Positions 11,148 through 51,411 of a stretch of DNA of 64,000 bases are shown here, piece by piece (position 1 is the first letter of the stretch; every line of letters starts with the position of its first letter). Below the pieces are notes generated by a model that saw nothing but the letters and a program-made list of their open reading frames with translations, was not told the origin of the DNA and did no database searches. Made by a program: the position numbers and the translations under genes. The stretch is from Escherichia coli (lineage in GTDB: Bacteria > Pseudomonadota > Gammaproteobacteria > Enterobacterales > Enterobacteriaceae): assembly GCF_041248615.1 (NCBI RefSeq), contig NZ_CP158426.1. The stretch is one strand, 5' to 3'.

Positions 11148-11384
11148 TTTTTTTGTATACCCTTCCGTTATAATAATTTTCAAATTTATAAATCTGATTG
11201 TTCTGAAATATGTTTAAGACTCTTTAATCTTCTTCTTACTTTAGTGAGTAAAATTCTCTGAATATTTGACAGCTAGTTGCCTGATTTTAAATGCCTTATA
11301 ACAATTGGCAGTATTCTTATTTGTCAATTATAAAAATAGCAACCAGACTTAATAAGTCAAACCAAACGCAATTAAGGAGTCAGT

Positions 11385-11777
11385 ATGAAATTTCAGGCCA
11401 TTGTATTAGCAAGTTTTCTTGTCATGCCTTATGCGTTGGCAGATGACCAGGGCGGATTAAAACAGGATGCAGCGCCACCGCCGCCTCATGCAATAGAAGA
11501 TGGCTATCGCGGAACCGATGATGCAAAAAAAATGACCGTTGATTTCGCAAAAACCATGCATGATGGCGCTTCGGTTTCACTACGCGGTAATTTGATTTCT
11601 CACAAAGGAGAGGACCGTTACGTTTTTCGCGATAAGAGCGGTGAAATTAATGTTGTTATTCCTGCGGCAGTCTTTGATGGACGAGAAGTTCAGCCGGACC
11701 AGATGATCAACATTAGCGGCAGTCTGGATAAGAAAAGCGCGCCGGCCGTCGTTCGGGTCACTCATTTGCAGAAATAA
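11385..11777 (+). CDS. ydeI: YdeI, periplasmic OB-fold (BOF/YgiW family) stress protein
   Basis: 130-aa ORF with signal peptide and AAGGAG RBS; recognised as YdeI. Confidence 0.8.
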
Positions 11778-12031: not shown

Positions 12032-12943
12032 ATGATCAAGAAGACAACGGAAATTGATGCCATCTTGTTAAATCTCAATAAGGCTATCGATGCCCACTAC
12101 CAGTGGCTGGTAAGTATGTTTCACAGCGTGGTCGCGAGAGATGCCAGTAAGCCAGAAATAACGGATAACCATTCTTATGGACTGTGCCAGTTTGGTCGGT
12201 GGATTGATCATCTGGGGCCACTCGATAACGATGAATTACCTTATGTTCGGCTAATGGATTCTGCCCATCAACATATGCATAACTGTGGTCGGGAATTAAT
12301 GTTGGCTATTGTTGAAAATCACTGGCAGGACGCGCATTTCGACGCCTTTCAGGAAGGGTTGCTTTCTTTTACTGCGGCATTAACCGATTACAAAATTTAT
12401 TTGCTGACGATCCGTAGCAATATGGATGTTTTGACGGGATTGCCGGGTCGTCGGGTTCTTGATGAATCCTTTGATCATCAGTTACGCAACGCTGAGCCTC
12501 TGAATCTTTATTTAATGTTGTTGGATATTGACCGATTTAAATTGGTTAATGATACCTACGGGCATTTAATCGGCGATGTAGTATTACGCACCCTGGCAAC
12601 TTACTTAGCCAGTTGGACGCGCGATTACGAAACGGTTTATCGCTACGGTGGCGAAGAATTTATCATTATTGTCAAAGCGGCTAATGATGAAGAAGCATGT
12701 CGTGCAGGTATCAGAATTTGCCAGTTAGTCGATAACCATGCCATCACACATTCTGAAGGGCATATCAACATTACCGTGACAGCAGGTGTCAGTCGCGCAT
12801 TTCCTGAAGAGCCTCTGGATGTGGTCATTGGAAGAGCAGACCGGGCAATGTATGAGGGTAAGCAAACCGGAAGAAATCGCTGCATGTTTATTGACGAACA
12901 AAATGTGATTAACCGAGTTTCAGCTCCGTTTAACATTCATTGA
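12032..12943 (+). CDS. dgcZ: zinc-sensing diguanylate cyclase DgcZ
   Basis: ORF track 12026..12943; ATG at 12032 after AGGAG; GGDEF domain with RYGGEEF active-site motif. Confidence 0.9.
   Translation: MIKKTTEIDAILLNLNKAIDAHYQWLVSMFHSVVARDASKPEITDNHSYGLCQFGRWIDHLGPLDNDELPYVRLMDSAHQHMHNCGRELMLAIVENHWQDAHFDAFQEGLLSFTAALTDYKIYLLTIRSNMDVLTGLPGRRVLDESFDHQLRNAEPLNLYLMLLDIDRFKLVNDTYGHLIGDVVLRTLATYLASWTRDYETVYRYGGEEFIIIVKAANDEEACRAGIRICQLVDNHAITHSEGHINITVTAGVSRAFPEEPLDVVIGRADRAMYEGKQTGRNRCMFIDEQNVINRVSAPFNIH
12916..12933 (+). promoter_or_regulatory. PhoP-box-like direct repeat (GTTTCA-N5-GTTTAA) at the 3' end of dgcZ; candidate mgrR promoter element
   Basis: GTTT cores spaced 11 bp apart, about 30-40 bp upstream of the inferred sRNA start. 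Confidence 0.3.
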
Positions 12944-12964
12944 GAAAACTGATGCTACTGTGTC

Positions 12965-13065
12965 AACGATCCGTTATCAGTGCAGGAAAATGCCTGTTAG
13001 CGTAAAAGCAAAACACAAATCTATCCATGCAAGCATTCACCGCCGGTTTACTGGCGGTTTTTTTT
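12965..13065 (+). ncRNA. mgrR: candidate MgrR small RNA (PhoP-regulated, Hfq-dependent) ending in an intrinsic terminator
   Basis: position between dgcZ and mgtS matches the known locus; plus-strand terminator 13040..13065 (CCGCCGG-TTTA-CTGGCGG plus T8); 5' end not determined. Confidence 0.4.
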
Positions 13066-13070
13066 CGCCG

Positions 13071-13112
13071 TCATAAAAATCAGGCCCCTTGTACACAACT
13101 GTAACAAGGGGC
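13071..13112 (-). terminator. Rho-independent terminator of mgtS
   Basis: 10-bp stem GGCCCCTTGT/ACAAGGGGCC followed on the minus strand by TGATTTTTAT. Confidence 0.5.
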
Positions 13113-13140
13113 CGGTTAGGTGAGGGATTATCTCCGTTCA

Positions 13141-13236
13141 TTAGTCATCCCATTTGTGGCTGAAATACGCGGCCAGAAAACCAGAAAATAAAATTATTCC
13201 CAGTACGGCCATAAAAACATTCATATTACCCAGCAT
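13141..13236 (-). CDS. mgtS: 31-aa inner-membrane small protein MgtS (YneM)
   Basis: below ORF-track size cutoff; hand translation gives MLGNMNVFMAVLGIILFSGFLAAYFSHKWDD with GGAGGG RBS. Confidence 0.75.
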   Translation of the reverse strand: MLGNMNVFMAVLGIILFSGFLAAYFSHKWDD

Positions 13237-13362
13237 TATTTCCCTCCGTTTATGGTGTGGTGTGTTTCCTCGCTTACCTTAATTTTCATCTCAATGAGAA
13301 AGATATTAGCAGAGGTAACCTAAACGAAGGATGAATTAAATCTTTATTGTGTTCGACTTAAA

Positions 13363-14550
13363 TCAACAAAGCGCGGGCTGCCCCCACGGTCTTGCACGAA
13401 TTCCTTTTAACATCAGCACCCACGCAGCAATGATCACCAACGCTAAGATGATAAACAGCGAGAAAGGCGGCAGACTGGTAAGCACTATGCCACTCACTAA
13501 TGGGTTAATCGCCGCACCAAGCCAGCCTAAAGACTGAGCGGAAAAATAGCTGGCTTTCATTCCTGGCGGCGCAATATGGTCAATCAACATATACTCGCCC
13601 GGCGCATAAATGATTTCACCGACAGTAAATACCGCAGCTGACATACCCCACAATAGCAGGCTGTTGCCGGAAAAAATAAAACCAACCAGACCGATGACGA
13701 AACAGAGGGTGCCTGCTGTCATCAGCGCGCGGATGTTAGCCGGGTTAAGTCGGCGTCCCACGGAATATTGCAACGTAACTACCATGGCAGCATTAACCGG
13801 AAGAACAACCGCAACCACCTTTTCGGCAAAATCACCATCAGCAATCACCATCACATATTGTGAAATGCATGAAGCAAATGCGCCGCTAACAAAGGAAGCC
13901 AGAAAACCAGAGCAGGTAAACCACAACAGTGCTTTATCTTGTAATAAAACTTTCGGCGACCAGACACTGCCTGTTTCCGTGGCGATGATTTTCTCGCTGC
14001 GCTTTACCCAAATTTGAATGAAAAGCATGGGAAACGCGGAACAGATAGCTGCCAGCCAGAAGGGCAGATTGATGCTCTGCATCACCAACAGCGTGCCGAG
14101 CGGCGGACCGATGGTCCAGCCAATGTTTAGCATGGTGTAGTTGATTGAGAAGATTTTCGTTTTGCTGGTGGACGAAAGATTGTCGGCAAACCAGGCTTTC
14201 AACACGGTAGCAAAAACGGAATAGGCGCAGTTAATAAGGGCAAAAAAGAGCACCACCAGCGTCACGTTATTCACTAAAGGAATGGCAATAAAACCACTGG
14301 CGAAGGCGGTAATTGCCAGTAACATATAGCGTTTCTTGTCGAACTTATCCGCCAGGATACCAAAACCGAGGCTAAAAACGACGCCAATAGTGAGCGCAAT
14401 TGTCATCGCATAACCGATTAGATTGACACTCAGGTTGTACTGGCGACTCAAGTAAATGGTCATAAACGGCAGCGTAGCGCCGCGTCCGATGGTTAATAAC
14501 AACGACGAGGTAAGAAGGGCGCTGGTAGAGCGTCGTAGGGATAAGTTCAT
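13363..14550 (-). CDS. ydeE: MFS efflux transporter YdeE (dipeptide exporter)
   Basis: 395-aa ORF with 12 predicted TM segments; recognised as YdeE. Confidence 0.85.
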   Translation of the reverse strand: MNLSLRRSTSALLTSSLLLTIGRGATLPFMTIYLSRQYNLSVNLIGYAMTIALTIGVVFSLGFGILADKFDKKRYMLLAITAFASGFIAIPLVNNVTLVVLFFALINCAYSVFATVLKAWFADNLSSTSKTKIFSINYTMLNIGWTIGPPLGTLLVMQSINLPFWLAAICSAFPMLFIQIWVKRSEKIIATETGSVWSPKVLLQDKALLWFTCSGFLASFVSGAFASCISQYVMVIADGDFAEKVVAVVLPVNAAMVVTLQYSVGRRLNPANIRALMTAGTLCFVIGLVGFIFSGNSLLLWGMSAAVFTVGEIIYAPGEYMLIDHIAPPGMKASYFSAQSLGWLGAAINPLVSGIVLTSLPPFSLFIILALVIIAAWVLMLKGIRARPWGQPALC

Positions 14551-18724: not shown

Positions 18725-22845
<4,121 letters not shown>

Positions 22846-22875
22846 TGAGACTTCAGGAAGATATTACGGAGATAT

Positions 22876-22904: not shown

Positions 22905-23123
22905 CTACATAGCGTGTTGATTATAATAGGGCACGCCGAGCGCATCCGACTTATCACTGCCAGTACCCATGTGATTTAAATCAAACGGTGGTTGTTCCTG
23001 CGATGGGGGAACAACCACGACATTGGCACAGGAAGTAACAACCGGCTGCGTGGTTTGTTCCGCAATGCCCTGCGTGGAAAAGAGAATAAACGCAGCTGCT
23101 ATTGCGGATAAAAGTGGTTTCAT
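22905..23123 (-). CDS. marB: multiple antibiotic resistance protein MarB (periplasmic)
   Basis: 72-aa ORF with signal peptide; recognised as MarB. Confidence 0.85.
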   Translation of the reverse strand: MKPLLSAIAAAFILFSTQGIAEQTTQPVVTSCANVVVVPPSQEQPPFDLNHMGTGSDKSDALGVPYYNQHAM

Positions 23124-23154
23124 GATTGCCTCAGTGACGTTGTCACGTTATCAA

Positions 23155-23538
23155 CTAGCTGTTGTAATGATTTAATGGATGTAAAAAGCGCGATTCGCCC
23201 TGCATATTGGTCATCCGGTATTTATGTGGCGGAACATCAAAGTAATTTTTGAAGGTTCGGGTCAGAGTTTGTTGCGACTCGAAGCCATATCGTTCTGCCA
23301 GATAGAGTATCGGCTCGTTACTTTCCTTCAGCTTTTGCGCGATTTCCGTCATCTTACGGCTGCGGATGTATTGGCCTAATGAATGACCGGTTTCTTTTTT
23401 AAACATCCGTTGCAGGTGCCATTTAGAGTAACCCGAACGCTCTGACACTTTCTCCAGTGACAGTGGCGATTCCAGGTTGTCCTCGATCCAGTCCAAAATG
23501 CTATGAATGGTAATAGCGTCAGTATTGCGTCTGGACAT
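23155..23538 (-). CDS. marA: AraC/XylS-family transcriptional activator MarA
   Basis: ORF track 23155..23544; ATG at 23538 gives the 127-aa [22 protein letters not shown] start. Confidence 0.9.
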
Positions 23539-23558
23539 CGTCATACCTCTTTTTTTGT

Positions 23559-23993
23559 TTACGGCAGGACTTTCTTAAGCAAATGCTCAAGTGTTGCCAC
23601 TTCGTCCGCCGTCAGGTTTTTTGTTAATTCTTGATGCAGGTCCTGGCCAACTAATTGATGGCATTGTTCACATATTGCCGCGCCGCTGGTGGTAAGTTTT
23701 ACCAGTACGCCGCGCTTGTCATTCGGGTTCGGCAACCTTTCCACCCAGCCTTTACAGACCAGGCGATCCAGCATACGGGTCAGCGCCCCCAGGTCGACCG
23801 ATAACACTCTTTTCAGTTCAACCGGAGTAATACACGCCGCGCAGCGGATAGAGCAGAGCACCTTAAACTGTGCCGCGGTAATATCCAGCGGAGACAGATA
23901 CTCGTTAAGCAGGCGATCTTTCTTCTGATTAACCATATGGATTAAGCGACCCAATGGAATAATTTCATTGAACAGATCGCTGGTACTTTTCAC
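23559..23993 (-). CDS. marR: repressor MarR (carries K62R, G103S, Y137H relative to the K-12 sequence as I recall it)
   Basis: 144-aa ORF, GTG-initiated; residues counted directly from the translation. Confidence 0.9.
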
Positions 23994-23998
23994 ATTAG

Positions 23999-24045
23999 TT
24001 GCCCTGGCAAGTAATTAGTTGCAGGGGATAATATTGCCCAGGCAA
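23999..24045. promoter_or_regulatory. marO: two MarR operator palindromes (TTGCCCTGGCAA at 23999..24010; TTGCCCAGGCAA at 24034..24045)
   Basis: both palindromes read directly immediately upstream of marR. Confidence 0.7.
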
Positions 24046-24067
24046 GTATAAGTCAAATGAATGAATT

Positions 24068-24092
24068 GACCGATGCCACGTTTTGCTAAATC
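24068..24092 (-). promoter_or_regulatory. marbox (MarA/SoxS/Rob binding site) upstream of the marRAB promoter
   Basis: minus-strand GATTTAGCAAAACGTGGCATCGGTC matches the marbox as I recall it. Confidence 0.6.
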
Positions 24093-43391: not shown

Positions 43392-44984
43392 ATGGCTCGA
43401 CTCTTTACCCCTTCAGAATCAAAGTATTACCTGATGGCGCTGGATGCAGGTACCGGAAGTATTCGGGCTGTGATATTCGACCTGGAAGGCAATCAAATAG
43501 CCGTGGGACAGGCGGAGTGGCGGCACCTGGCAGTACCGGACGTTCCTGGTTCTATGGAATTTGATCTCAACAAAAACTGGCAACTGGCGTGTGAGTGTAT
43601 GCGCCAGGCGCTGCACAACGCCGGCATAGCCCCGGAGTATATCGCTGCCGTTTCGGCATGTTCGATGCGTGAAGGCATTGTTTTATATAACAATGATGGA
43701 ACACCGATCTGGGCCTGCGCCAATGTGGATGCCAGAGCGGCGCGCGAAGTTAGCGAACTTAAAGAACTGCACAACAATACCTTTGAAAACGAAGTTTATC
43801 GCGCCACCGGACAAACGCTGGCTTTAAGCGCTATTCCCAGATTACTTTGGCTGGCGCACCATCGTTCTGATATCTACCGACAGGCGTCGACCATCACCAT
43901 GATCAGCGACTGGCTGGCCTATATGCTCAGCGGCGAACTGGCGGTGGATCCCTCTAACGCTGGCACCACGGGACTTCTTGATCTAACCACCCGTGACTGG
44001 AAACCTGCATTGCTGGATATGGCCGGACTGCGGGCCGATATTCTTTCTCCTGTCAAAGAAACCGGCACATTGCTGGGCGTGGTAAGTTCACAAGCGGCGG
44101 AACTCTGCGGTCTGAAGGCGGGCACTCCGGTGGTCGTTGGAGGAGGCGACGTGCAACTTGGTTGCCTTGGGTTAGGCGTTGTCCGTCCGGCACAAACCGC
44201 TGTTCTTGGCGGCACATTCTGGCAGCAAGTTGTAAACTTAGCCGCGCCGGTGACAGACCCAGAAATGAACGTGCGCGTTAATCCTCATGTTATTCCTGGC
44301 ATGGTACAAGCTGAATCTATAAGCTTTTTTACCGGACTCACCATGCGCTGGTTCCGCGATGCTTTCTGTGCCGAAGAAAAACTGATTGCCGAACGTTTAG
44401 GCATCGACACCTATACGCTGCTTGAAGAGATGGCAAGTCGGGTGCCGCCTGGGTCGTGGGGCGTAATGCCGATATTCTCCGACAGAATGCGCTTTAAAAC
44501 CTGGTATCACGCTGCGCCTTCCTTTATTAATTTGTCTATTGATCCGGATAAATGTAACAAAGCGACATTGTTCCGTGCGCTGGAAGAAAATGCGGCGATA
44601 GTATCAGCGTGTAACTTGCAGCAAATCGCTGATTTCTCGAATATTCATCCTTCATCGTTAGTCTTTGCAGGCGGAGGTTCAAAAGGGAAATTATGGAGTC
44701 AAATTCTCGCTGATGTCTCGGGATTACCCGTCAATATTCCGGTGGTCAAAGAAGCCACTGCATTAGGATGTGCCATTGCAGCTGGCGTCGGTGCCGGAAT
44801 TTTTTCATCAATGGCAGAAACCGGAGAACGCCTGGTTCGCTGGGAACGGACGCACACACCAGACCCGGAAAAGCATGAACTTTATCAGGATTCACGCGAT
44901 AAGTGGCAGGCAGTTTATCAGGATCAGCTGGGGCTGGTTGATCACGGGCTGACGACGTCGTTATGGAAAGCGCCTGGGTTATAG
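43392..44984 (+). CDS. lsrK: autoinducer-2 kinase LsrK (FGGY carbohydrate kinase family)
   Basis: 530-aa ORF recognised as LsrK. Confidence 0.9.
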
Positions 44985-44992
44985 TTTCATTG

Positions 44993-45028
44993 ACAGCCAC
45001 ATCATGATGACCGTGGCTGTTAGTTTTT
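44993..45028 (+). terminator. terminator-like hairpin after lsrK (ACAGCCAC...GTGGCTGT then TAGTTTTT)
   Basis: read directly; loop is long but contains a nested TCATGA palindrome. Confidence 0.4.
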
Positions 45029-45513
45029 GAGTATTGGTATTCTCATTTCCCTTCTTTTAGAGCTGGTTTGTTAAATGCCAGCTTGCAGATTCATCGTTCC
45101 ATCGCCAGTAATATATTCAAGGGGAAATTGCTATTTTTCTTAAAATATTAAGCATAACCCTTATTTTATAGCGAATATTCCTAAAGGCACAAATGAATGA
45201 AAAAGAGTTTTAATAGAGTTCTTTTTTAGCAATTAATGCTATTCTTTGTTAAATATGATGATGGTAATTTTCTTATTAAAAGAAACATTTTTCTTATTAA
45301 GCAACAATAACTCATGGTTCATTTTTAAATAAAATAAGAACTATGCAATTTTTAATTTATCAATTCGAAAGTATTAGCAAATTAGCCAAATTGACACCTT
45401 CCCACCTCCAACCAACACTCAATACAGACCTCTGACAATTTAATAAGTTTCATTTTTAATGTCTGACGACTCATCTCTTTCGTGGCTGTATTGTTTGTAT
45501 ATGGAGCGTTTAT

Positions 45514-48500
45514 ATGAATAGAATCTATCGCGTGATATGGAATTGCACCCTACAGGCATTTCAGGTCTGCTCGGAATTAACTCGCAGGGTAGGTAAAACA
45601 TCGACGGTTAATTTGCGTAAATCCTCTGGGCTGACAACGAAATTCAGTAGATTGACGCTGGGTGTTTTGCTGGCACTAAGCGGTTCAGCGTCTGGTGCGA
45701 GTCTGGAAGTTGATAATGATCAGATTACCAATATTGATACTGATGTTGCTTATGATGCCTACCTGGTTGGCTGGTATGGCACTGGAGTGCTTAATATTTT
45801 GGCTGGCGGTAATGCCTCCTTAACCACTATTACTACCAGCGTCATTGGTGGTAATGAGAACTCGAAGGGCACCGTTAATGTTTTGGGTGGCACCTGGCGA
45901 TTGTATGATAGCGGAAATAATGCAAGGCCTTTAAATGTGGGCCAATCCGGAACGGGGATGCTGAATATTAAACAGAAGGGGCACGTTGATGGAGGCTATT
46001 TAAGATTAGGTACTCAAGCTGTAGGCGTCGGGATGGTTAATGTTGAGGGAGAGGACTCGGTTCTGACGACGGAGTTATTCGAAATAGGTAGCTATGGCAC
46101 AGGTTCATTAAATATTACGGATAAGGCTTATGTCACGAGTTCAATCGTCGCCATTTTAGGCTATCAGACGGGCAGTAATGGCCAGGTTGTCGTTGAAAAG
46201 GGCGGTGAGTGGCTAATAAAAAATAACGATTCCTCAATTGAATTTCAAATTGGTAATCAAGGAACTGGGGAAGCGACTATTCGCGAGGGTGGGCTGATTA
46301 CGGCTGAAAATACGATTATCGGTGGCAATGCCACCGGTATCGGAACCCTGAATGTGCAGGATCAAGACTCTGTCATCACGGTACGCAGACTCTATAATGG
46401 ATATTTCGGTAATGGCACAGTCAATATTTCCAATAATGGACTGATTAATAATAAAGAATATTCATTGGTGGGCGTTCAGGACGGTTCCCACGGTGTCGTC
46501 AACGTGACTGATAAAGGGCATTGGAATTTCCTCGGAACGGGCGAAGCTTTCCGCTATATCTATATCGGTGATGCTGGCGATGGTGAACTTAATGTCTCGA
46601 GTGAAGGCAAAGTAGATTCGGGAATTATCACTGCGGGGATGAAAGAAACAGGCACAGGCAACATTACTGTTAAGGATAAGAACTCCGTTATCACTAATCT
46701 CGGAACTAATCTTGGTTATGACGGCCACGGCGAAATGAATATCAGTAATGAGGGGCTTGTTGTCAGCAACGGAGGAAGTTCACTCGGTTATGGAGAAACC
46801 GGCGTCGGGAAGGTTAGCATCACCACGGGGGGGATGTGGGAGGTCAATAAGAATGTCTATACCACCATTGGTGTTGCGGGCGTCGGAAACCTCAATATTA
46901 GCGATGGCGGTAAGTTTGTATCGCAAAATATTACTTTTTTGGGCGATAAAGCAAGCGGTATCGGCACACTGAACCTGATGGATGCGACATCATCGTTCGA
47001 TACTGTAGGTATCAATGTCGGTAATTTTGGTAGCGGCATCGTAAATGTCAGTAATGGTGCCACCCTTAATTCAACGGGCTATGGATTTATCGGAGGAAAT
47101 GCCTCCGGTAAGGGGATAGTTAATATTTCAACGGATAGTCTCTGGAATTTAAAAACGTCATCTACTAACGCCCAATTGCTACAGGTCGGTGTATTAGGCG
47201 CGGGTGAACTGAATATTACCACCGGAGGTATAGTTAAAGCGCGTGATACACAAATAGCTCTCAATGACAAAAGTAAGGGCGACGTGCGGGTGGATGGGCA
47301 GAACTCTCTTCTTGAAGCATTCAATATGAACGTAGGGACGACAGGCACGGGTACGTTAACCCTGACGAATAACGGTACGCTGAATGTCGAAGGTGGAGAG
47401 GTTTACTTAGGTGTTTTTGAGCCTGCTGTAGGAACGCTAAACATTGGTGCTGCTCACGGTGAGGCGGCGGTAGATGCCGGGTTTATCACCAACGCGACGA
47501 AAGTAGAGTTTGGCTCTGGCGAAGGTGTTTTTGTCTTTAATCATACTAATAACAGTGATGCCGGCTACCAGGTCTATATGCTGATTACAGGTGACGATAA
47601 AGACGGAAAAGTGATCCATGATGCAGGCCATACGGTGTTCAATGCAGGGAATACTTATAGCGGTAAAACGTTGGTCAATGACGGCCTCCTGACCATTGCG
47701 TCTCATACGGCAGATGGGGTAACGGGCATGGGTTCGAGTGAAGTAACCATTGCAAACCCCGGTACGCTCGACATTCTCGCATCAACGAACAGTGCAGGAG
47801 ATTACACGCTGACCAATGCGCTCAAAGGCGATGGCTTGATGCGAGTGCAGCTGTCATCCTCCGACAAAATGTTTGGCTTTACCCATGCAACAGGAACTGA
47901 ATTCGCCGGTGTTGCCCAACTGAAAGACAGTACCTTCGCACTGGAACGCGACAACACCGCTGCGCTTACTCACGCGATGCTGCAGTCTGACAGTGAAAAT
48001 ACCACATCGGTAAAAGTGGGAGAGCAATCCATTGGTGGACTAGCCATGAATGGCGGTACGCTCACTTTCGATACGGATATACCTGCTGCGACGCTTGCGG
48101 AGGGATATATCAGCGTCGATACACTGGTTGTCGGCGCGGGTGACTACACCTGGAAAGGCCGTAACTATCAGGTAAACGGGACGGGCGACGTGCTTATCGA
48201 CGTGCCTAAACCGTGGAATGATCCCATGGCGAATAACCCTCTGACGACGCTCAATTTGCTGGAACACGATGATAGCCATGTCGGCGTTCAACTGGTGAAG
48301 GCGCAAACGGTTATTGGGTCGGGTGGCTCATTAACGTTACGTGATTTACAGGGCGACGAGGTGGAAGCGGACAAAACGTTACATATTGCACAAAACGGGA
48401 CAGTGGTCGCCGAGGGTGATTATGGATTCCGCCTCACGACCGCACCTGGTGATGGTTTGTATGTTAACTATGGGCTGAAAGCGCTGAACATCCATGGTGG

Positions 48501-50934
48501 GCAAAAGCTGACGTTAGCCGAACATGGCGGAGCCTATGGCGCAACGGCCGATATGTCGGCAAAAATCGGTGGTGAAGGGGATCTGGCAATCAATACGGTG
48601 CGACAGGTTTCGCTTTCTAACGGTCAGAACGACTATCAGGGGGCAACCTACGTTCAGATGGGGACATTACGTACCGATGCGGATGGCGCGCTGGGCAATA
48701 CTCGGGAACTGAACATCAGCAACGCGGCCATCGTCGATCTTAATGGATCGGCCCAGACGGTAGAGACATTCACCGGGCTGATGGGTTCGACTGTTTTGTT
48801 TAAAGAGGGGTCGCTGACGGTAAATAAAGGTGGGATCAGTCAGGGTGAACTGACAGGTGGCGGAAACCTGAATGTTACAGGGGGAACGCTGGCTATCGAG
48901 GGGCTTAATGCACGCTACAATGCGTTAACCAGCGTTAGCCCAAATGCGGAAGTCAGCCTCGATAATACGCAGGGGTTAGGCAGAGGAAATATTGCCAATG
49001 ACGGTCTGTTAACGCTAAAAAACGTGACTGGCGAACTGCGCAATAGCATAAGCGGGAAGGGTATCGTGAGCGCAACCGCCAGGACAGATGTAGAGCTGGA
49101 TGGCGATAATAGCCGCTTTGTGGGGCAATTCAACATTGATACAGGCAGCGCGCTCAGCGTCAACGAGCAGAAAAACTTGGGTGATGCTTCCGTTATCAAT
49201 AATGGCCTGCTCACCATCTCCACTGAGCGTAGCTGGGCGATGACGCACAATATCAGCGGTAGCGGTGATGTGACAAAACTGGGTACCGGGATCCTGACTC
49301 TTAACAAAGATTCCGCGGCGTATCAGGGTACGACGGATATCGTGGGTGGTGAAATTGCTTTCGGTTCCGACTCTGCCATTAATATGGCAAGTCAGCACAT
49401 TAATATCCATAACAGCGGTGTGATGTCGGGAAATGTCACCACTGCAGGTGATGTGAACGTTATGCCAGGGGGGACACTGCGTGTCGCTAAAACCACTGTC
49501 GGCGGTAACCTGGAGAATGGTGGCACGGTTCAAATGAACAGCGAAGGGGGGAAACCGGGGAATGTACTGACCGTTAACGGTAACTATACCGGAAACAATG
49601 GCCTGATGACGTTCAACGCGACGCTGGGCGGCGATAATTCGCCCACCGATAAGATGAACGTGAAAGGCGATACCCAAGGGAATACTCGCGTTCGGGTTGA
49701 TAACATTGGCGGCGTCGGTGCACAAACGGTCAACGGTATTGAACTCATTGAGGTCGGCGGTAATTCTGCAGGTAACTTCGCGCTGACCACCGGAACTGTC
49801 GAAGCTGGGGCTTACGTCTACACGCTGGCTAAAGGGAAGGGGAATGACGAGAAAAACTGGTATCTGACCAGTAAATGGGACGGCGTAACGCCAGCGGATA
49901 CACCCGATCCCATCAATAATCCCCCTGTTGTGGATCCGGAAGGCCCATCAGTTTATCGCCCGGAGGCCGGAAGCTATATCAGCAACATTGCCGCAGCCAA
50001 CTCGCTGTTTAGCCATCGCTTACACGACCGTCTGGGTGAGCCGCAGTATACAGATTCACTGCATTCTCAGGGTTCGGCAAGCAGTATGTGGATGCGTCAT
50101 GTCGGAGGGCACGAACGTTCAAGGGCCGGTGACGGTCAGCTAAATACTCAGGCTAACCGCTATGTATTGCAGCTAGGCGGCGATTTGGCGCAGTGGAGTA
50201 GCATCGCGCAGGATCGCTGGCATCTCGGCGTCATGGCAGGCTATGCCAATCAGCACAGTAATACTCAGAGTAATCGTGTGGGTTATAAATCGGATGGGCG
50301 CATCAGCGGGTACAGCGCTGGGATTTACGCGACCTGGTATCAGAACGATGCGAATAAGACCGGCGCTTATGTTGACAGCTGGGCGCTGTATAACTGGTTT
50401 GATAACAGCGTCAGTTCCGATAACCGTTCTGCTGACGACTATGATTCTCGCGGTGTGACGGCCTCTGTTGAGGGTGGGTATACCTTTGAAGCGGGAACAT
50501 TTAGCGGCAGCGAAGGGACGCTGAATACCTGGTACGTCCAGCCACAGGCGCAAATCACCTGGATGGGTGTGAAAGATTCTGACCATACCCGGAAAGACGG
50601 AACACGCATTGAAACGGAAGGCGACGGAAACGTGCAAACGCGACTTGGGGTGAAAACCTACCTGAACAGTCATCACCAGCGTGACAATGGTAAACAGCGT
50701 GAGTTCCAGCCTTACATTGAAGCGAACTGGATCAACAACAGCAAAGTCTACGCCGTGAAGATGAATGGTCAAACCGTAAGCCGTGATGGTGCGCGTAATC
50801 TCGGTGAAGTACGTACCGGGGTTGAGGCGAAAGTAAATAACAACCTTAGCCTGTGGGGGAATGTCGGTGTGCAACTAGGTGATAAAGGCTATAGCGATAC
50901 TCAGGGCATGCTGGGTGTGAAATATAGCTGGTAA
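45514..50934 (+). CDS. type Va (AIDA-I-like) autotransporter adhesin, intact 1806-aa ORF
   Basis: extended signal peptide MNRIYRVIWNCTLQAFQV...; long passenger with repetitive G-T-G-x-L-N-I beta-helix units; C-terminal barrel ending YSW. Confidence 0.8.
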   Translation: MNRIYRVIWNCTLQAFQVCSELTRRVGKTSTVNLRKSSGLTTKFSRLTLGVLLALSGSASGASLEVDNDQITNIDTDVAYDAYLVGWYGTGVLNILAGGNASLTTITTSVIGGNENSKGTVNVLGGTWRLYDSGNNARPLNVGQSGTGMLNIKQKGHVDGGYLRLGTQAVGVGMVNVEGEDSVLTTELFEIGSYGTGSLNITDKAYVTSSIVAILGYQTGSNGQVVVEKGGEWLIKNNDSSIEFQIGNQGTGEATIREGGLITAENTIIGGNATGIGTLNVQDQDSVITVRRLYNGYFGNGTVNISNNGLINNKEYSLVGVQDGSHGVVNVTDKGHWNFLGTGEAFRYIYIGDAGDGELNVSSEGKVDSGIITAGMKETGTGNITVKDKNSVITNLGTNLGYDGHGEMNISNEGLVVSNGGSSLGYGETGVGKVSITTGGMWEVNKNVYTTIGVAGVGNLNISDGGKFVSQNITFLGDKASGIGTLNLMDATSSFDTVGINVGNFGSGIVNVSNGATLNSTGYGFIGGNASGKGIVNISTDSLWNLKTSSTNAQLLQVGVLGAGELNITTGGIVKARDTQIALNDKSKGDVRVDGQNSLLEAFNMNVGTTGTGTLTLTNNGTLNVEGGEVYLGVFEPAVGTLNIGAAHGEAAVDAGFITNATKVEFGSGEGVFVFNHTNNSDAGYQVYMLITGDDKDGKVIHDAGHTVFNAGNTYSGKTLVNDGLLTIASHTADGVTGMGSSEVTIANPGTLDILASTNSAGDYTLTNALKGDGLMRVQLSSSDKMFGFTHATGTEFAGVAQLKDSTFALERDNTAALTHAMLQSDSENTTSVKVGEQSIGGLAMNGGTLTFDTDIPAATLAEGYISVDTLVVGAGDYTWKGRNYQVNGTGDVLIDVPKPWNDPMANNPLTTLNLLEHDDSHVGVQLVKAQTVIGSGGSLTLRDLQGDEVEADKTLHIAQNGTVVAEGDYGFRLTTAPGDGLYVNYGLKALNIHGGQKLTLAEHGGAYGATADMSAKIGGEGDLAINTVRQVSLSNGQNDYQGATYVQMGTLRTDADGALGNTRELNISNAAIVDLNGSAQTVETFTGLMGSTVLFKEGSLTVNKGGISQGELTGGGNLNVTGGTLAIEGLNARYNALTSVSPNAEVSLDNTQGLGRGNIANDGLLTLKNVTGELRNSISGKGIVSATARTDVELDGDNSRFVGQFNIDTGSALSVNEQKNLGDASVINNGLLTISTERSWAMTHNISGSGDVTKLGTGILTLNKDSAAYQGTTDIVGGEIAFGSDSAINMASQHINIHNSGVMSGNVTTAGDVNVMPGGTLRVAKTTVGGNLENGGTVQMNSEGGKPGNVLTVNGNYTGNNGLMTFNATLGGDNSPTDKMNVKGDTQGNTRVRVDNIGGVGAQTVNGIELIEVGGNSAGNFALTTGTVEAGAYVYTLAKGKGNDEKNWYLTSKWDGVTPADTPDPINNPPVVDPEGPSVYRPEAGSYISNIAAANSLFSHRLHDRLGEPQYTDSLHSQGSASSMWMRHVGGHERSRAGDGQLNTQANRYVLQLGGDLAQWSSIAQDRWHLGVMAGYANQHSNTQSNRVGYKSDGRISGYSAGIYATWYQNDANKTGAYVDSWALYNWFDNSVSSDNRSADDYDSRGVTASVEGGYTFEAGTFSGSEGTLNTWYVQPQAQITWMGVKDSDHTRKDGTRIETEGDGNVQTRLGVKTYLNSHHQRDNGKQREFQPYIEANWINNSKVYAVKMNGQTVSRDGARNLGEVRTGVEAKVNNNLSLWGNVGVQLGDKGYSDTQGMLGVKYSW

Positions 50935-51144: not shown

Positions 51145-51411
51145 ATGATGAGCTTTCAGAAGATCTATAGCCCAACGCAATTAGCGAATGCAATGAAACT
51201 GGTTCGTCAGCAAAATGGCTGGACGCAGAGCGGGCTGGCGAAAAAAATCGGCATTAAGCAGGCGACAATTTCCAATTTCGAAAACAACCCTGACAATACC
51301 ACGCTGACGACATTTTTTAAGATTTTACAGTCGCTTGAACTCTCAATGACGCTATGCGACACGAAAAATGCCTCGCCAGAATCAACAGAACAGCAAGATC
51401 TGGAGTGGTAA
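51145..51411 (+). CDS. hipB: antitoxin HipB (Cro/C1-type HTH)
   Basis: ORF track 51127..51411; ATG at 51145 gives the 88-aa MMSFQKIYSPTQ start. Confidence 0.9.
   Translation: MMSFQKIYSPTQLANAMKLVRQQNGWTQSGLAKKIGIKQATISNFENNPDNTTLTTFFKILQSLELSMTLCDTKNASPESTEQQDLEW

Follow-up and report, generated by a model that had tools for sequence, protein, structure and literature searches.

The gene lsrK and the large autotransporter gene yneO are separated by a strongly AT-rich spacer of 529 bp in the 64-kb stretch of Escherichia coli chromosomal DNA analysed here (hereafter the window), which raises the question of what this spacer does for the adhesin gene that follows it. In the initial annotation, it was described as an AT-rich leader of about 500 bp with short direct repeats, of a composition typical of H-NS-silenced, horizontally acquired adhesin genes, which might carry the regulatory logic of the autotransporter gene. 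We consider it probable that the spacer is a composite regulatory region consisting of a terminator, an H-NS-silenced promoter island and a conserved proximal promoter, in which the repeat is incidental. The features on which this reading is built are collected in Table 1.

Table 1. Features of the lsrK-yneO spacer and its flanks (positions in the 64-kb window)
Feature	Position	Strand	Remarks
lsrK (autoinducer-2 kinase)	43392-44984		5′ flank of the spacer
Spacer, lsrK stop to yneO ATG	44985-45513		529 bp
Intrinsic terminator of lsrRK	44989-45028 (hairpin 44989-45024)	+	RNA fold
AT-rich, A-tract-dense core, predicted to be curved	45081-45425 (approximate)	none	Corresponds to K-12 promoter island 1596197_345 / H-NS-bound domain
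Marbox core GCATTAATTGCTAAA	45225-45239 (20-bp marbox 45223-45242)	-	275-289 bp 5′ of the ATG, backward relative to yneO
Repeat TTTTCTTATTAA, copy 1	45268-45279	+	Variable copy; 9-11 of 12 bases matched in 8 of 10 alleles
Repeat TTTTCTTATTAA, copy 2	45289-45300	+	Invariant in 10 of 10 alleles
H-NS-like motif TTGATAAATT	45354-45363	-	9 of 10 positions match the reported high-affinity motif TCGATAAATT
Candidate promoter TTGACA-17-AACACT	45391-45419	+	Predicted start near 45426; top sigma-70 matrix score, 10.4
Candidate promoter CTGACA-17-TTTAAT	45432-45460	+	Predicted start near 45467; predicted 5′UTR about 47 nt
Shine-Dalgarno GGAG	45503-45506	+	Sequence reading
yneO start codon ATG	45514-45516	+	Sequence reading
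yneO, intact, ECSE_1600-family autotransporter	45514-50934	+	1806 aa; gene regulated by the spacer

Composition and variation of the spacer

The location given in the initial annotation was right, but the start at 45001 lies 16 bp within the true spacer. The yneO protein has Pfam matches to ESPR, Pertactin, AC_1 (autochaperone) and Autotransporter beta-domain. The gene has its K-12 orthologue in the pseudogene yneO (formerly ydeK/ydeU), and hipBA comes next downstream. Its open reading frame of 1806 codons is intact here and frameshifted in K-12, O157:H7 and ETEC H10407; the strains with measured H-NS and MarA binding are among those with a broken yneO. Using an 801-bp query made up of the spacer and its flanks, we found the lsrK-yneO locus in 4,229 of the 5,426 complete E. 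coli genomes, with less than 80% of the query covered in about 230 genomes. The locus is missing from the B2 strains CFT073, UTI89 and 536, from which the absence of ECSE_1600 has already been noted (PMC2608844). At the sensitivity of blastn, the spacer is single copy in each genome and has no paralogues, which rules out a paralogous copy or a mobile-element derivative. Neither the curated K-12 record nor any RefSeq record inspected has a feature annotated within it.

Among 100,044 species representatives, a degenerate-codon scan recovered no orthologues outside E. coli, its sole match being one E. coli contig. This contig of 25 kb (JARKOR010000214.1) is binned in a 'Candidatus Nanosynbacter sp.' MAG and holds lsrK-yneO DNA at 12860-13470, with a spacer roughly 95% identical to that of the window; it is almost certainly bin contamination. 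Insertion sequences were also seen at the locus. In strain NIPH17_0036 (NZ_AP024561.1, about 1806-3000), an IS5 copy sits inside the spacer in the same orientation as yneO, and its target, TTAA, is equivalent to window positions 45139-45142, about 375 bp 5′ of the yneO ATG. IS5 copies upstream of the H-NS-silenced operons bgl, flhDC and glpFK are known activators. In strain 100416 (NZ_CM128593.1), an IS1 follows lsrK directly and has replaced the start of yneO together with the entire spacer.

It is evident that the spacer was correctly described as strongly AT-rich. Its GC content is 30.8%, compared with 48.0% for the window, and it is the most AT-rich among about 20 non-coding gaps of the window. 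The core (45100-45399) has a GC content of 24.7%, and the lowest-GC 300-bp segment of the whole 64 kb (24.3%; mean 48.0%, sd 5.2) starts at 45101. The AT-rich block extends from about 45031 to about 45400, that is, over roughly 350 bp of 25-28% GC. A/T tracts occur at 41.6 per kb in the AT-rich core and at 15.8 per kb window-wide, a 2.6-fold difference, and TpA steps at 9.1 per 100 bp in the block versus 5.4 window-wide. A curvature model with approximate wedge parameters ranks the most bent 120-bp core fragment 83rd of 12,764 and predicts bend peaks near 45050, 45215 and 45385, all three in the top 1-5%. In a matrix scan of both strands, sigma-70-like sites with a score of at least 8 occur at 11.3 per kb versus 2.1 per kb window-wide, and those with a score of at least 6 at 30 per kb in the spacer block versus 10 per kb, so that the overall density is 3-5 times that of the window. 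The spacer shows the AT content over more than 200 bp and the predicted curvature and A-tracts of xenogeneic silencing targets, together with the exceptional predicted promoter density, over at least 300 bp and on both strands, of promoter islands. The AT-rich, foreign composition of the downstream gene that goes with xenogeneic silencing is absent from yneO, which has 50.1% GC and 51.6% GC3, on par with lsrK. The composition thus does not bear out the view that the adhesin gene was horizontally acquired; the AT-rich part is the spacer only, and silencing would be nucleated there alone.

Elsewhere in the window, 300-bp stretches with GC below 32% are found only at 11091-11470 and 61051-61430. 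The former lies in the dcp-ydeI spacer, adjoining a 2-oxo-tetronate isomerase remnant, and the latter is located 5′ of a fimA-like gene belonging to a cryptic fimbrial operon of the chaperone-usher class, as determined by coordinate mapping to TUM14771. Both are likely to be further H-NS targets. The strongest predicted curvature of the entire window is located downstream of yneO, in a 120-bp fragment of the hipB 5′ region (about 51281-51400; end-to-end/contour ratio 0.71).

We aligned ten alleles of the locus, from this window, FDAARGOS_1279, EC-10, EcPF15, Z1323, K-12, MS 196-1, O157:H7, H10407 and one MAG contig. The polymorphism figures refer to nine of them, because the lsrK end of the MAG contig is misaligned. 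Polymorphic columns make up about 14% of positions 45031-45300, 8% of 45301-45400 and 2.7% of 45401-45513, and account for 14.1% and 11.6% of the third codon positions in lsrK and yneO, respectively. The GC content of the core nevertheless stays between 24.7% and 28.2% across all ten alleles. A composition held steady while the columns vary as freely as third codon positions points to a constraint on composition rather than on sequence, and clear sequence constraint within the spacer appears to be limited to the proximal promoter/UTR and the terminator. Compared with the K-12-type alleles, differences number 28-34 over the 529 bp of the spacer, 2-6 over 385 bp at the 3′ end of lsrK and 11-14 over 387 bp at the start of yneO. 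The excess divergence of the spacer suggests either relaxed constraint or an old split into two spacer haplotypes.

Terminator, probable H-NS-bound island and candidate proximal promoters

A consensus promoter/terminator scan of the spacer gave no calls at all. The scan missed the lsrRK terminator because its 12-nt loop exceeds the 8-nt limit, and it rejected CTGACA-17-TTTAAT because this promoter lacks the key -11 A. Since the consensus rules exclude both the terminator and a published promoter, a matrix scan and direct folding were used instead. In the terminator, the core stem ACAGCCAC (44993-45000) is paired with GTGGCTGT (45013-45020) and followed by TTAGTTTTT. The fold has an energy of -17.4 kcal/mol (z = -3.8 versus shuffles), and none of the 46 positions is polymorphic among the nine alleles. 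This terminator argues against read-through from lsrK into the spacer. It was overlooked in the initial annotation, as were the marbox, the near-consensus H-NS motif and the conserved candidate core promoter.

As for the proposed silencing by H-NS, the binding itself matches ChIP and SELEX data published for the K-12 orthologue, which is roughly 94% identical, and silencing would follow from it by inference. In K-12, genomic SELEX has assigned an H-NS site to the lsrK-yneO spacer (PMC3946193). This spacer is also one of 78 'promoter islands' (1596197_345, ydeK/lsrK; Panyukov and Ozoline 2013, PMC3661553) and carries the score 'A', which stands for H-NS binding in all three compiled ChIP data sets, those of Grainger, Kahramanoglou and Oshima (PMC3661553). 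At promoter islands, RNA polymerase is bound and open complexes arise, but little full-length RNA is made (PMC3661553). To obtain the coordinates of the island in this window (about 45081-45425), we took U00096.2 and U00096.3 to be offset by about 1,978 bp, a value that agrees with the hipB and ydeK SELEX peaks. All protein-binding data refer to K-12 or H10407 alleles, in which the spacer is 93-94% identical to this haplotype. H-NS binding and the promoter island at this locus are already published, and the finding is in this respect an ordinary one. In the literature, we found no expression value for yneO/ydeK in an hns mutant; for this strain, both the silencing of yneO and its promoter choice are inferred.

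The spacer also carries, on the minus strand, a near match to the sequence that is said to be the high-affinity motif of H-NS, TCGATAAATT. Motifs of this class at no more than two mismatches occur at 1.9 per kb in the spacer, compared with 1.6 per kb. With no enrichment of the class, TTGATAAATT should be considered a lead only.

Both candidate promoters, the 5′UTR, the GGAG and the ATG belong to a conserved proximal block (45385-45513), the last ~125 bp of the spacer. The TTGACA hexamer of the upstream candidate is invariant in all ten alleles. Both hexamers of CTGACA-17-TTTAAT are likewise invariant in 10 of 10 alleles, with one spacer base changed in the O157 allele. The latter, the only promoter prediction published for the yneO<lsrK spacer, is the best match under a genomic SELEX peak of the RpoD holoenzyme (Shimada et al. 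2014, PMC3946193), and an RpoS-holoenzyme peak has been reported in the same spacer (Shimada et al. 2017, PMC5493296). As weak negative evidence, no entry for a ydeK start site is present in the supplementary files of Kim 2012 (PMC3415461). In a CpxR-overexpression microarray study, ydeK is listed in the CpxR-regulon table as up 2.2-fold, and the same paper allows that indirect effects may account for many genes that lack a CpxR box. A conserved C-rich, G-poor block, CCTTCCCACCTCCAACCAACACTCAATACAGACC (45398-45431, GC skew -0.30), interrupts the AT-rich tract between the two -35-like hexamers.

With its best promoter candidates in this proximal part, and predicted starts 47-88 nt before the ATG, the spacer is probably not a transcribed leader of 500 nt. 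A start very close to the ATG had been named beforehand as an outcome that would speak against the original reading, and it is to this short distance that the promoter predictions point. The predicted 5′UTRs are less structured than shuffled sequences (z = +1.0 and +1.8). A structured leader or riboregulator was sought as well; no Rfam family matches the spacer at E ≤ 1, two chance eukaryotic matches both falling outside it, and the 5′UTR folds are no more stable than those of shuffles.

In the composite region that we favor, the hairpin terminator would end lsrRK transcription at the upstream edge. The AT-rich block would then serve as a platform for the nucleation and spreading of H-NS, with curved, TpA-rich DNA nucleating the complex and its spread reaching the adjacent promoter. 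RNA polymerase may be trapped in this block at many weak sites without productive escape, which would leave yneO cryptic. The last ~125 bp would provide one or more functional core promoters, a short unstructured 5′UTR of 47-88 nt and a good Shine-Dalgarno sequence, and the marbox inside the silenced block would be bound by MarA, possibly also by SoxS or Rob. The earlier suggestion that the regulatory logic of the autotransporter gene lies in this spacer is supported.

The marbox and the 12-bp repeat

The 20-bp marbox, ATAGCATTAATTGCTAAAAA (45242-45223, minus strand), agrees at 12 of the 14 specified positions with the marbox consensus, reportedly AYnGCACnnWnnRYYAAAYn. Such a pattern alone is unremarkable, as 2.0 are expected by chance per 64 kb, and the weight of the site comes from binding experiments. 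In ETEC H10407, MarA ChIP-seq gave a peak at 1717096 with a MEME site, gcactaattgctaaa, centred at 1717112 and assigned to yneO (Sharma et al. 2017, PMC5684230), and purified MarA binds the H10407 yneO fragment at 0.3 μM in a gel shift (PMC5684230). The H10407 15-mer GCACTAATTGCTAAA (1717104-1717118) lies in the spacer at 275-289 bp from the yneO ATG and aligns to 45225-45239, which confirms that the two sites are orthologous. They differ by one nucleotide, GCAT in this haplotype versus GCAC in H10407. The 15-nt core of this window is identical to the grxA/ybjC marbox, which is listed as '+++' (strong binding) (PMC5684230). Three polymorphisms were found in the marbox among the ten alleles, and each leaves the site compatible with the consensus. 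The locus combines an experimentally verified, strong MarA site with surrounding H-NS-bound DNA; the adhesin gene that follows is intact here and broken where binding was measured.

It could be argued that this site drives a promoter just 3′ of it, within the AT-rich block. Transcription would then begin near 45275-45295 and, under mar/sox/rob stress, give yneO a leader of some 220-240 nt, the TATTAA of repeat copy 1 or 2 serving as the -10 element. We regard this as unlikely, even though the orthologous site is bound by MarA both in vivo and in vitro and remains consensus-compatible in all alleles. Class I marboxes lie backward at about -50 to -70, and class II marboxes lie forward, overlapping the -35 element. 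Relative to yneO the marbox runs backward, which is reportedly the class I arrangement, and -10-like elements follow 20-60 bp downstream (TGgTAATTT at 45262-45270 and TATTAA at 45274-45279 and 45295-45300). However, these elements at class I-like distances are weak, no good -35/-10 pair is present at class I or class II spacing (the best plus-strand score is 5.1), and the TATTAA of copy 1 is TATTGA in K-12-type alleles. The marbox is centred at about -193 and -235 relative to the two conserved proximal promoters. The commonness of marbox-like patterns also weighs against this promoter, as does the fact that MarA-dependent transcription of yneO was not reported by the authors of the ChIP study, whose supplement has no yneO entry (PMC5684230).

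MarA bound at the marbox may relieve silencing as a counter-silencer, activate an internal promoter or do neither, the site then being non-productive. A fuller scenario, to which we give only a small chance, is that MarA (or SoxS/Rob) bound within the H-NS domain acts in one of the first two ways, so that marRAB, on sensing antibiotic or oxidative stress, would turn on a large AIDA-type adhesin wherever yneO is intact. In that scenario the changes specific to this haplotype, namely GCAT, the perfect second TATTAA-containing 12-mer and the better H-NS motif, would tune the switch. If MarA does relieve silencing, the multidrug-resistance regulon would be linked to surface adhesion.

The marRAB operon is found in the same window, on the minus strand at 22905-24090 (marR 23993-23559, marA 23544-23155, marB 23123-22905). 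Its own marbox, CCACGTTTTGCTAAA (24076-24090), is about 21 kb from the MarA site upstream of yneO. Just downstream of marB, an IS3-family element on the minus strand (about 21100-22373; orfA 21963-22373, orfB 21100-22005) splits a 6-phospho-beta-glucosidase gene (20420-21175 and 22339-22848) that is intact in TUM14771.

The short direct repeats of the initial annotation are present as two exact copies of TTTTCTTATTAA, 21 bp apart from start to start, with no other mismatch-free occurrence in the 64 kb; they do not form an array of motifs. When the region was shuffled 2,000 times with its dinucleotides preserved, exact direct repeats of 12 nt or longer arose anywhere in it in 3.5-4.2% of the shuffles and within 50 bp in 0.45-1%. 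The pair is modestly above chance. A 21-bp tandem duplication was ruled out by direct reading of the sequence, as the similarity ends with the 12-mer and only 2 of the next 9 positions match. Copy 1 reads TTTTCTTATTAA in this window and FDAARGOS_1279, TTTTCTTATTGA in four alleles (EC-10, EcPF15, Z1323 and the MAG contig), TTTTCCTATTGA in K-12, H10407 and MS 196-1, and TTTTCCTACTGA in O157:H7. The 60-bp segment that holds the two copies is found unchanged in 240 of the 5,426 genomes, and the spacer haplotype at 99% identity or more in 243 genomes, 82% of the carriers being 90-95% identical. These counts indicate that the perfect repeat is a minority, lineage-specific state. Between the two copies lies an OmpR-like sequence, GAAACATTTT, which we do not claim as a site.

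That the AT-rich 500 bp are a transcribed leader, in which the repeated TTTTCTTATTAA provides cis-regulatory sites for the adhesin gene, appears very improbable. The exact 12-mers do stand about two helical turns apart, an exact repeat this close is rare in the shuffles and copy 2 is invariant. Nevertheless, copy 1 is off by 1-3 positions in 8 of the 10 alleles, the DNA around the repeats evolves at the synonymous rate and the 60-bp allele is confined to 240 of the 5,426 genomes, findings that do not fit a functional motif. The position of the best promoter candidates and the lack of an Rfam family also tell against a leader, and the lsrK terminator would block read-through into it. The duplicated TTTTCTTATTAA may be better viewed as a by-product of low-complexity AT-rich DNA drifting under compositional constraint, in which point changes would have turned two similar 12-mers identical in this haplotype. 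Given the invariance of copy 2 and the probability of about 0.005-0.01 for a repeat within 50 bp, there may be a functional site at copy 2, and each copy holds a -10-like TATTAA.

The curated K-12 record includes recently discovered small proteins. A hidden small gene in the spacer, encoding a small protein or an sRNA and making the AT-richness incidental, is the least credible reading, since the 30-codon open reading frame at 45343-45435 (plus strand), despite spanning the conserved proximal part and having 3 of 6 substitutions synonymous among the alleles (by our own reading of the alignment), has no Shine-Dalgarno sequence, suffers a frameshifting 1-bp insertion in MS 196-1, is unannotated in that record and has no Rfam match.

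Comparison with known regulatory systems

The composite region shares parts with several systems. As in promoters of the mar/sox/rob regulon, a near-consensus 20-bp marbox is present, and MarA occupancy is proven at the orthologous H10407 site. In contrast to those promoters, the marbox is centred about 190-235 bp 5′ of the predicted starts, far outside the class I and class II positions; only weak promoter-like sites inside the island could bring it into such a position. The regulatory region of agn43 (Ag43) likewise belongs to an E. coli gene for a self-associating autotransporter of the AIDA type. Unlike that region, the spacer is devoid of GATC (0 in 529 bp, against a window mean of 3.5 per kb), which excludes phase variation of the Dam/OxyR type.

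With the promoters of H-NS-silenced adhesins, the locus shares an AT-rich, curved upstream region before a surface adhesin gene, H-NS binding being known from the K-12 orthologue. Cryptic chaperone-usher fimbriae and upaC are examples of this group, which is cryptic under laboratory conditions. It differs from them in that the body of yneO is not AT-rich. The importance of the spacer beyond annotation is small, and it may serve as a textbook-style case of a large adhesin gene being held silent in E. coli. In silencer DNA of this kind, selection seems to target the base composition and not the sequence, and eye-catching short repeats within it should accordingly be discounted.

The K-12 genes ycgV and yfaL are autotransporter genes too. 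Promoter islands have also been published upstream of both (PMC3661553). The island described by Shavkunov, Panyukov and Ozoline as 1596197_345 is the same, orthologous locus as the spacer studied here, with AT-rich DNA and dense, overlapping promoter-like sites; binding of RNA polymerase and H-NS with low productive transcription are published traits of the K-12 orthologue. Compared with the K-12 island, the spacer of this haplotype is 6-7% diverged, its core has a GC content of 24.7% rather than 27.9%, and the yneO gene downstream of it is intact rather than a frameshifted pseudogene.
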